A DNA stretch of 32,000 nucleotides from an uncultured Chloroflexia bacterium (GTDB taxonomy: Bacteria > Chloroflexota > Anaerolineae > Anaerolineales > Anaerolineaceae): NCBI GenBank assembly GCA_963806635.1, contig CAWDZA010000023.1, forward strand, positions 226,876 through 258,875, in the 5' to 3' direction. A model generated the notes under the pieces. It saw only the letters and a list, made by a program, of their open reading frames with translations, ran no database searches and had not been told where the DNA came from. Below, in pieces: positions 18,275 through 19,956 of this stretch. How positions within the stretch are numbered: the stretch's first letter is position 1; the number at the start of each line of letters is the position of its first letter. The position numbers and the translations under genes were made by a program.

Positions 18275-18574
18275 TCAGCAGCAATCGCCCTGGCCGCCAC
18301 CGCAACCGCAGGTGGCTTCATCCATCTTTTTACCCCGCAGGGCAGCCTGGATCATGGCGGAGGCGCAGCCAACCCCGGCATCCACATAGATGGCTCTCAC
18401 CGGGCAGTTCAGCATGCAGGCGCCGCACTCCATGCAAGCAAGTGGGTTGGCAAGAATGGCTACTTTTTCCCCGCGGGCGAAGACGGCATGCGGGCAGACG
18501 ATGCTGCACAGGTCGCAGTTTATGCAGAGATCAGAATCATATTGCAGGGTGGTTTCGGTGTAGGAATTGAACAT
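18275..18574 (-). CDS. hgcB: HgcB, 2x[4Fe-4S] ferredoxin of the mercury-methylation pair
   Basis: Two CxxCxxCxxxCP motifs (CINCDLCSIVCP and CMECGACMLNCP), an internal GVGCA cysteine, and a C-terminal vicinal pair ...GQGDCC. GGGAGG RBS lies inside the hgcA 3' end, with a 1-nt gap between the genes. Confidence 0.85.
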   Translation of the reverse strand: MFNSYTETTLQYDSDLCINCDLCSIVCPHAVFARGEKVAILANPLACMECGACMLNCPVRAIYVDAGVGCASAMIQAALRGKKMDEATCGCGGGQGDCC

Positions 18575-18575
18575 C

Positions 18576-19568
18576 TCAACCTCCCAGCGCTTTCCAAATC
18601 GCCAGACCTATCGTTACCGCCACGCTGAACCCGAAGAACCAGCCCATGACCGGGATATACGCGAAGATCTCCTTTTTCACACCGGTGCGGGAGGTGAAAG
18701 TGGAGGAGCCGGTGAAGTTGAGCGCGATGAAAGCCGTTACCACCGGGTAACCGAGCACGAGTGGCAGAAGGTGAAGGATTTTCGACCATAATGGACCCGT
18801 GGAGTTCGTCCAGGATTGAACCATAAAGGGCAGCATCACCACCAGACCAAGGAAGAAACCCTTGACGCTGAAATCATGGGAGGGCAGCCAGGGCAGCAGG
18901 ATGGGGAATAGCACAATCGCTGCCAGCACCGAAGTTACCACAGCCGCCACCGCAAACCAGCCGCCGAGGAAATAGAGGATCAGCGCTGCAAGCAGCGTGG
19001 GCAGGAAGTAGTTGATGATATCCACCGGGATGAGCGTGAGCCTATCCTTGATGCTGAACCGCACTTCGCGCATTTCTGCGGTTGCCTGCCGATTGCGCAG
19101 GTACTCCTTAAGGTCTTCCGCGCGGACGGGGCCGTATTCCACCTTGAAGCCGGTGCGCTTCTTCACAATGTGTGCCATCACCCCGGTGGCGCCCAGTTGG
19201 GGCAGGATCAACACCCGGGTGTTCACAATATCCTTCAACCCGGAGGACTCGATCCGCTTGACCAGCTCATTCGTCCCAAAGGTGCCCTTGCCGGCGGCGC
19301 ACCAGACGTTTATGCCGTGCGTGTCCAGGACTAGGATCCACCCATCCACGCCGGCAAGTGACGAGCGCAGCGCGTTGAAGGAGAGCTTGTAATTGGCGGT
19401 GACAAAGACAGGGGAATCCGGAGTGGGCGATCCGAGCGCATACAACCCCGGTTTCACCCGGTGCAGGGAGCGGTTAATGCCCACCCGCGCCTGAAAGGTG
19501 TCCCAGCGGTCCGCCGAAGTCAGCTGGTACGTTGTCGAAAAGAACTCAGCCTGCAACTTAACCTCCAT
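18576..19568 (-). CDS. hgcA: HgcA, corrinoid protein of the mercury-methylation pair (CFeSP-like domain plus C-terminal TM domain)
   Basis: Residues 87-94 are NVWCAAGK, encoded at 19287-19310 (AAC GTC TGG TGC GCC GCC GGC AAG on the minus strand). This is the diagnostic cap-helix motif. The C-terminal half (from about residue 180) consists of several hydrophobic helices. Confidence 0.9.
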   Translation of the reverse strand: MEVKLQAEFFSTTYQLTSADRWDTFQARVGINRSLHRVKPGLYALGSPTPDSPVFVTANYKLSFNALRSSLAGVDGWILVLDTHGINVWCAAGKGTFGTNELVKRIESSGLKDIVNTRVLILPQLGATGVMAHIVKKRTGFKVEYGPVRAEDLKEYLRNRQATAEMREVRFSIKDRLTLIPVDIINYFLPTLLAALILYFLGGWFAVAAVVTSVLAAIVLFPILLPWLPSHDFSVKGFFLGLVVMLPFMVQSWTNSTGPLWSKILHLLPLVLGYPVVTAFIALNFTGSSTFTSRTGVKKEIFAYIPVMGWFFGFSVAVTIGLAIWKALGG

Positions 19569-19595
19569 TTTTTCCGATTAAAAAATCCATGTTCG

Positions 19596-19919
19596 CTACA
19601 TGCAGCATTTTTTCAGGGTCTCCGTTGTTTCGTGACTGGGTGCGAATTTGATCATCAGGTTGCCACAGCAGCGCACGATCTTTTCCTCGTTGAGGCGGTA
19701 GAAAGTCTGCTTGCCCTCTGCCCGAACCTCCACAAGTTCCGCTGCCCGCAGAATCGCCAGGTGGTGGGAAACAGTCGGCTGGCTTACGTTTAAATGGGCT
19801 ACGATCTCGTTTACCGATAGCCACTGGCAGCAGGCGAGCCCCATGATCTTCTGGCGGGTTTCATCTGCCAGGGCTTTGCTGAAAACCACTTCTTCATCAT
19901 GAATCATATCGATACCCAT
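19596..19919 (-). CDS. arsR: ArsR/SmtB-family regulator upstream of hgcAB
   Basis: wHTH VNEIVAHLNVSQPTVSHHLAILRAAELV. Three vicinal Cys pairs: LACCQW, RCCG and C-terminal KCCM. Confidence 0.85.
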   Translation of the reverse strand: MGIDMIHDEEVVFSKALADETRQKIMGLACCQWLSVNEIVAHLNVSQPTVSHHLAILRAAELVEVRAEGKQTFYRLNEEKIVRCCGNLMIKFAPSHETTETLKKCCM

Positions 19920-19928
19920 CTATGTGTT

Positions 19929-19956
19929 ATTATATAGATAATCGTCTATATGTCAA
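19929..19956 (-). promoter_or_regulatory. Consensus promoter with embedded inverted repeat (ArsR-type operator candidate) for arsR-hgcAB
   Basis: Minus strand reads TTGACA (19951-19956), 16-nt spacer, TATAAT (19929-19934), then 9 nt to the ATG at 19919. The inverted repeat TATATAGA-N6-TCTATATg (19931-19952) spans the spacer and the -10. Confidence 0.55.

Follow-up and report, generated by a model that had tools for sequence, protein, structure and literature searches.

A predicted arsR-hgcA-hgcB mercury-methylation operon in a Chloroflexota bacterium and its conserved promoter with two operator-like repeats

We analyzed a 32,000-nt stretch of DNA from an uncultured Chloroflexia bacterium of the family Anaerolineaceae (assembly GCA_963806635.1, contig CAWDZA010000023.1, positions 226,876 to 258,875; hereafter the window, meaning the whole stretch), which carries the mercury-methylation genes hgcA and hgcB directly downstream of an arsR-type regulatory gene. 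The best overall explanation of the obtained data, to which we assign a probability of roughly 0.8, is that arsR-hgcA-hgcB would form a functional unit controlled by ArsR through two operators, that a thiophilic ligand would release the repressor, and that HgcAB would methylate Hg(II). The intact three-gene set reported in a first-pass annotation of this DNA was confirmed in every sequence detail, with all three genes on the minus strand (Table 1).

The identity of the hgcAB pair was assessed using profile models. HgcA scored 415.2 bits on the NCBI HgcA equivalog model NF040863 (cut-off, 275), and HgcB narrowly passed the NF040864 equivalog cut-off (105.2 bits vs 99). HgcA did not reach the cut-off of either the HgcAB-like fusion model (213.6 bits; cut-off, 285) or the gamma-subunit model of the corrinoid iron-sulfur protein, or CFeSP (80.2 bits; cut-off, 306), which argues against a grouping with the non-methylating paralogues, and Pfam recognized only the generic CdhD (PF03599) and Fer4 domains in the two proteins. 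The reverse complement of positions 19287-19310 is AACGTCTGGTGCGCCGCCGGCAAG, and codon reading confirmed the previously annotated cap-helix motif NVWCAAGK at HgcA residues 87-94. The membrane domain expected for HgcA is represented by five hydrophobic segments within residues 179-325, with none in residues 1-170 (Kyte-Doolittle, 19-residue window; hydropathy only). All HgcB motifs named in the first pass are present, namely the two CX2CX2CX3CP motifs CINCDLCSIVCP (residues 17-28) and CMECGACMLNCP (residues 47-58), Cys70 within GVGCA, and the terminal Cys98-Cys99.

The pair might instead be an HgcAB-like paralogue of a CFeSP-derived or fused-type lineage that does not methylate mercury. The corrinoid domain of HgcA is homologous to that of CFeSP (PF03599; 2h9a), a PDB search with HgcA found no deposited HgcA structure and matched CFeSP only (the closest chains being gamma subunits; 2h9a, E 1.9e-12), and the literature searched contained no biochemical data on any Chloroflexota HgcAB. 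We nevertheless consider such a paralogue very improbable, since HgcA and HgcB both passed their equivalog cut-offs, HgcA failed on the two paralogue models (HgcAB-like fusion and CFeSP gamma), every diagnostic residue and the membrane domain are present, and hgcA and hgcB are adjacent but separate genes with no fusion.

For comparative analysis, related loci and contigs were fetched and labeled with L-numbers. The nearest matches in the genome collection are metagenome-assembled genomes (MAGs) named 'uncultured Chloroflexia', whose HgcA proteins are 79-82% identical, and a 91% identical HgcA is encoded on a 266-kb contig (L064); a look-up of the exact HgcA sequence of the window found no record of it. 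A metagenome scan with the hgcAB-linked ArsR yielded two close loci only, the metagenome contigs L067 (97.8% nucleotide identity over window positions 16096-23408) and L068 (93.9%). Relative to these two contigs, the ratio of nonsynonymous to synonymous substitution rates (dN/dS) is 0.11-0.18 for hgcA, 0.20-0.22 for hgcB, and 0.13-0.18 for arsR; all three genes are under purifying selection. Judged from its sequence, the locus is a genuine and intact arsR-hgcA-hgcB mercury-methylation operon, with the activity predicted from family membership.

The gene layout is compact. Reading of the DNA gave a distance of 27 nt between the arsR stop codon and the hgcA ATG, and a single nucleotide (18575) between the hgcA TGA and the hgcB ATG, with GGAGG located 5 nt ahead of the hgcB ATG within the end of hgcA, which bears out the hgcB start and ribosome-binding site given in the first-pass annotation. 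A terminator scan found no terminator-like site on the minus strand between arsR and hgcB. These features are consistent with the single arsR-hgcAB transcription unit proposed there, in which the three genes would be co-transcribed. The annotated 107-aa ArsR reading frame, its spacing, and its location on the strand of hgcAB (the minus strand, which the first pass did not name) were also confirmed. Its translation most likely begins further in, at the 19907 start codon, and would then yield 103 aa, because most homologues have 103-104 aa and the start aligns at this position in relatives. An Rfam scan of the whole window produced zero matches and hence no cobalamin or other riboswitch ahead of hgcA. 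Downstream of hgcB, the fadR-like gene has its own promoter, TTGCAT-17-TATACT, and a FadR-box palindrome, CTGGTCAGACCAC (18210-18222), conserved in eight relatives, and thus sets the 3' boundary of arsR-hgcAB, which is in this way delimited on both sides.

The promoter scan placed TTGACA-16-TATAAT, a 12/12 match to the consensus, at 19956-19929 on the minus strand ahead of arsR, and the inverted repeat previously noticed in it proved to be a perfect 7+7 repeat, designated O1; a second operator-like repeat, O2, follows. The O1 pattern has three matches in the window versus 0.37 expected, and O1 is kept upstream of arsR in both hgcAB-linked and arsM-linked loci. The position and half-sites of O2 are also found in L002, L065, L066, L073, L075, L076, and L078-L084. 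Together, these elements make up a 53-nt cassette upstream of arsR that is near-identical among relatives and consists of CTTGACA, an ATAGA-N6-TCTAT repeat overlapping TATAAT, and a second repeat, ATAGA-N6-TC(T/G)AT, that ends at the ATG. The strict pattern of its first half, TTGAC-N2-ATAGA-N6-TCKAT-ATAAT, occurs in 16 of the 84 fetched loci, each time just upstream of an arsR of this family. A more distant member, L005, has two repeats in the same places with the compensatory half-sites ATTGA/TCAAT; both arms have changed with the symmetry kept, as predicted for the site of a dimeric repressor. An arrangement with one site over the promoter spacer and another over the transcript start is the classical autorepressor layout of the ArsR/SmtB family.

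A third operator-like repeat, ATAGA-N6-TCTAT, is located between hgcB and fadR (18228-18247) and overlaps the fadR -10 hexamer. It was tried as a further ArsR site and set aside: its left half is found only in the window, L067, and L068 and is absent in five other relatives, and its right half is the conserved fadR -10 hexamer. This repeat could be a third ArsR site or a chance occurrence, and we treat it as unproven.

The hgcAB-linked ArsR was recognized by both HTH_5 (PF01022; 50 bits, cut-off 22) and NF033788 (80.1 bits, cut-off 55). It contains three cysteine pairs, Cys30/31, Cys84/85, and Cys105/106 (numbering of the 107-aa frame). In the family alignment, Cys30/31 and Cys84/85 are present in 122-123 of the 123 members, and the C-terminal Cys105/106, within a KKCC(M) tail, in only 12-14 of them, which make up the window's own subclade. 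The canonical R773-type CVC(DLC) site is replaced by SVNEIV at the corresponding position, as compared by eye. With its invariant Cys30/31 and Cys84/85 and the upstream promoter-repeat cassette, the regulator has the defining features of a Chloroflexota CC...CC clade, which we delimit in this work.

Genomic contexts of this ArsR family were obtained by 12 single-protein look-ups, which are not a systematic census. All seven sampled homologues that lack the tail (69-73% identical to the ArsR of the window) are encoded directly upstream of arsM or arsP-arsM, and the five S-adenosylmethionine (SAM) methyltransferases scored among their neighbors all pass the arsenite methyltransferase cut-off (307-328 bits vs 263). 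In the Cys-tail subclade, every member with a readable neighborhood (the window, L067, L068, L002, and L078-L082) is followed by hgcAB-fadR-glpD. Three further members, L003 (an Acidobacteriota MAG), L005, and P0239/L083, are hgcA-linked yet tail-less. A neighbor-joining tree of 14 ArsRs supports the subclade of the window with 86% bootstrap, and the deep nodes have values of only 8-33%, too low to decide the direction of the swap between arsM and hgcAB. Based on these contexts, we infer that the ArsR family belongs to an arsenic-methylation circuit and that hgcAB would here be wired to the same sensor and operator, whatever the ligand proves to be. The arsenic response published for ArsR2 of Pseudodesulfovibrio mercurii ND132, a seemingly unrelated regulator, agrees with this view.

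Two further observations concern this regulator. In L086-L089, the same ArsR (arsR at approximately 2501-2815) is followed by arsP, encoding a methylarsenite permease, and then by arsM, a widespread variant found on 24 contigs, which hints that the family may sense methylarsenite instead of arsenite. In addition, the arsR gene of the window is only 93.8% identical to that of L067 at the nucleotide level (dS 0.21), versus 98.3-99.5% (dS 0.02-0.05) for the flanking ars cluster and hgcA, a pattern that suggests that strains have recombined or exchanged alleles at the regulator gene.

In the proposed mechanism, an ArsR dimer would bind the two ATAGA-N6-TCTAT operators, O1 inside the sigma-70-type promoter and O2 past the -10 hexamer but ahead of the start codon of arsR, and would repress arsR itself together with the co-transcribed hgcAB. 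Binding of a thiophilic ligand at the cluster formed by Cys30/31 and Cys84/85 would release ArsR; this ligand would most likely be arsenite or methylarsenite, given that in related bacteria arsM and arsP-arsM are under this regulator family and cassette. Arsenite-responsive derepression is the most likely mode of control suggested by this comparison. The enzyme roles are those established for the HgcA and HgcB families: HgcA, a membrane-anchored protein whose cap helix carries Cys90, would donate a methyl group to Hg(II), and HgcB, with two [4Fe-4S] clusters, Cys70, and the C-terminal cysteine pair, would return the cobalt to its reduced state and deliver Hg(II).

Several points weigh against this interpretation. 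We infer the inducer from genomic context only. The ArsR lacks the R773-type CVC, and its CC...CC pattern is also unlike the CxC...CxC of ArsR2 from Pseudodesulfovibrio mercurii ND132, so that the ND132 results are not directly transferable; moreover, ND132 ArsR2 also responds to S-adenosylhomocysteine (SAH) (10.1101/2022.10.17.512643). The C-terminal cysteine pair is specific to the subclade and may point to another or a further effector, for example Hg(II). The closely related L064 locus has no arsR, and its hgcA starts 1 nt after the stop codon of an M29 peptidase gene, which indicates that ArsR control is dispensable in this lineage. Finally, the ribosome-binding site of hgcA is weak, and read-through from the upstream ars cluster into arsR-hgcAB may occur, as the terminator scan found no terminator-like site after acr3 or after hgcB, leaving room for read-through in either direction.

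Some of these points bear on a second explanation, by which the regulator would sense Hg(II) through its C-terminal Cys-Cys tail, or would sense SAH, and hgcAB would be responsive to mercury or to the methyl cycle rather than to arsenic. It draws on the rarity of the KKCC(M) tail and its link to hgcAB in all readable members of the subclade, on the cysteine pair in which HgcB also ends, and on the dual response of ND132 ArsR2. We judge it unlikely: the tail is missing from L003, L005, and P0239/L083, although these are hgcA-linked; only the two internal cysteine pairs are invariant, and these also occur in the regulators of arsM; and the protein, of ~103 aa, has no SAM/SAH-binding domain. A bolder extension of the preferred arsenic-responsive model, which we advance only tentatively and consider unlikely, treats hgcAB and arsM as interchangeable cargoes of one arsenic-sensing cassette, with HgcAB deployed in the response to arsenic or methylarsenic. 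If so, the native role of HgcAB could be linked to arsenic instead of mercury, for example in corrinoid-dependent As(III) methylation or in coping with its consequences, and the C-terminal cysteine pair that the hgcAB-linked regulators acquired would adapt the sensor to its new cargo.

The first-pass annotation had also read the neighboring acr3, glpD, and proC genes as broken and had taken the intact state of hgcAB as standing out against them. The frameshifts are indeed present in the window sequence: acr3 is split at ~20487 by a single inserted base, glpD is split at ~17283 and ~16123, and proC, for which a motif scan found nothing and which was then located from the translations of open reading frames, is in at least three pieces (11592-10801). 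The stretch from 10.8 to 20.5 kb contains five or more frameshifts while arsR, hgcA, and hgcB are uninterrupted, and the region might be decaying, with true pseudogenes around an hgcAB pair kept intact by selection. However, acr3 and glpD are uninterrupted in the short-read contigs L067 and L068, and all four indels between the window and L067 (20487, 18201, 17283, and 16123) are an additional base in the window, the one at 18201 being intergenic. With the inserted bases removed, dN/dS relative to L067 and L068 is 0.04-0.07 for acr3 and 0.10-0.14 for glpD, so the corrected genes are as constrained as hgcA. At ~0.55 indels per kb, a 1.7-kb stretch would be free of indels by chance in ~40% of cases by our arithmetic, and similar damage is seen in related MAG contigs, where hgcA is split in L002 and arsM is fragmented in L085. 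Decay of the region is therefore improbable, and the frameshifts in acr3, glpD, and proC are most likely assembly or sequencing errors. The contrast between intact hgcAB and broken neighbors is discounted for this reason. Frameshifted neighbors in such assemblies should not be read as pseudogenes, and other apparent pseudogenes in the window should be distrusted.

Table 1. Positions of the arsR-hgcA-hgcB unit, its promoter elements, and adjoining features in the window
Feature	Position	Strand	Description
arsR	19919-19596	minus	107-aa open reading frame; gene of the hgcAB-linked ArsR/SmtB-family repressor; probable start 19907
hgcA	19568-18576	minus	330 aa; corrinoid methyl-transfer protein; N-terminal CFeSP-like corrinoid domain and five predicted C-terminal membrane helices
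hgcB	18574-18275	minus	99 aa; 2x[4Fe-4S] ferredoxin with Cys70 and C-terminal Cys98-Cys99
Cap-helix motif NVWCAAGK	19287-19310	minus	Cys90, predicted cobalt ligand; matches N(V/I)WCA(A/G)GK
-35 hexamer TTGACA	19951-19956	minus	12/12 consensus match with 16-nt spacer; conserved in 16 related loci
-10 hexamer TATAAT	19929-19934	minus	Promoter scan
Operator-like repeat O1, ATATAGA-N6-TCTATAT	19932-19951	minus	Perfect 7+7; covers the promoter spacer and extends into the -35 and -10 hexamers
Operator-like repeat O2, ACATAGA-N6-TCGATAT	19906-19925	minus	Two mismatches to O1; between -10 and the arsR start (19907)
ars-type cluster	20016-23857	minus	gcvH-like, two DGC-domain genes, OsmC-like, ArsE/thioredoxin-like, arsC (low-molecular-weight protein tyrosine phosphatase type), acr3
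Second arsR	24235-23882	minus	Canonical ArsR with PCVCHL; heads the upstream ars cluster; Cys-rich tail NCCCPNC
fadR-like regulator gene	17465-18175	minus	NF003444, 203.7 bits vs 189; downstream of hgcB

Upstream of the unit, the ars-type cluster is headed by a second arsR that was absent from the first-pass annotation. Its product scored just under the NF033788 cut-off (53.5 bits vs 55) and shares 42% identity with the hgcAB-linked ArsR over 36 aa only, and the latter is a paralogue distinct from the upstream CVC-type ArsR. The G+C content of the ars cluster is 0.46-0.52 versus ~0.54-0.65 in the flanks. Close relatives share a conserved backbone composed of an M29 peptidase gene, a variable slot, and hgcA-hgcB-fadR-glpD-FAD oxidase. 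The slot, corresponding to 20016-24340 in the window, is empty in L064, contains a gene for a major facilitator superfamily transporter in L001, and contains arsR alone in L002, so that in these three loci the stretch from the M29 peptidase gene to hgcA/arsR carries no ars-type cluster; in the window, L067, and L068, the slot contains the ars-type cluster followed by arsR, where L067 begins within the cluster at the first DGC gene and L068 includes no more of it than the 3' half of acr3. Neither a transposase nor flanking repeats were observed at the slot (20016-24340).

The companions of the ars genes (21470-23857, minus strand) are unusual in themselves and include a GcvH-like lipoyl carrier, two DGC proteins with four cysteines, an OsmC-like protein, and a thioredoxin-like protein of the ArsE type; in ND132, too, an ars operon has DGC and ArsE as companions (10.1101/2022.10.17.512643). 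At some distance from hgcAB, the segment 1151-5228 contains a 381-aa open reading frame without a family match between two genes for ParA/AAA_31-type ATPases (1151-1942 and 3352-4194, both on the minus strand); next to this group is a gene for an AAA_22 ATPase (4404-5228, plus strand). Together, these genes could be a partition, mobile-element, or defense module.

The purpose of hgcAB and the control of its expression are unresolved questions in mercury biogeochemistry, and Chloroflexota are abundant in soils and sediments. The abundance of hgcAB genes predicts methylmercury production poorly (10.1101/2022.10.17.512643). The locus described here offers a testable handle in the form of a candidate operator, ATAGA-N6-TCTAT, present twice, and a putative sensor with two invariant cysteine pairs, together with natural material for comparison in the apparent cargo swaps between arsM and hgcAB and in arsR-less relatives such as L064. 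Reporters could be built from the cassette, and metatranscriptomes could be read for arsenic-dependent induction of hgcAB in Chloroflexota.

As a class, the locus is ordinary. An arsR gene directly upstream of and co-transcribed with hgcAB has been published for the Desulfovibrionaceae (10.1101/2022.10.17.512643, which also cites Goni-Urriza et al., 2020, on arsR2-hgcAB). Across phyla, arsR-like genes occur upstream of hgcA with acr3, arsC, or arsM nearby, and transcripts of such regulators were detected in Chloroflexi (McDaniel et al., 2020, PMC7438021), while the presence of a regulator goes along with lower hgcA expression (Peterson et al., 2025, PMC11984097). The first-pass description of a known system therefore agrees with the literature, Chloroflexi included, and this is one more example of arsR-hgcAB, whose modest added value lies in the regulatory comparison. 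In the literature searched, we found no definition of the operator, no CC...CC sensor, no separate canonical ArsR for an adjacent ars cluster, and no cargo exchange between arsM and hgcAB under a single cassette, an absence that is not proof of novelty.

A close published counterpart is arsR2-hgcAB of P. mercurii ND132. In both cases, the regulator is distinct from the ArsRs of the ars operons of the genome, and four of its cysteines make up a candidate sensor site. The arsR2 gene of ND132 is co-transcribed with hgcAB and arsenic-responsive, whereas here a response to arsenic is predicted from context. The published ND132 site consists of Cys47, Cys49, Cys86, and Cys88 in a CxC...CxC arrangement (10.1101/2022.10.17.512643), in contrast to the vicinal CC...CC and C-terminal CC of the window. 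There are no ars genes at the hgcAB locus of ND132, whereas the window has a full ars cluster, including a CVC-type ArsR of its own, directly upstream and in the same orientation. The two hosts also belong to different phyla, and an operator is not described in the literature searched, whereas two conserved operator-like repeats are present here. The hgcAB loci of environmental MAGs (PMC7438021, PMC11984097) have the same kind of gene content and order, with Chloroflexi among the carriers; in those loci arsM is a neighbor, whereas in the group studied here an orthologous regulator and cassette would drive either arsM or hgcAB depending on the lineage.

At the protein level, HgcA is comparable to the CFeSP gamma subunit of the Wood-Ljungdahl pathway (AcsC/CdhE), with which it shares a homologous corrinoid domain (HgcA residues 37-160 align to 2h9a residues 319-442). 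The CFeSP cap helix has Thr (SVLTAWAAGK) where HgcA has Cys (NVWCAAGK), and HgcA has a predicted five-helix membrane domain and lacks the [4Fe-4S] and TIM-barrel domains. At the regulatory level, the closest counterparts are the arsR-arsM and arsR-arsP-arsM operons of Anaerolineae-type Chloroflexota (L065, L066, L073, L075, L076, and L085-L089), whose ArsR proteins are 68-70% identical to that of the window in the alignment used for the tree. These ArsRs have the same invariant cysteine pairs but lack the C-terminal one, and their genes follow the same cassette of TTGACA, ATAGA-N6-TCTAT, TATAAT, second repeat, and ATG. The operons differ in what lies downstream: in place of the corrinoid HgcAB pair, they encode a SAM-dependent arsenite methyltransferase, in some cases together with the ArsP permease.

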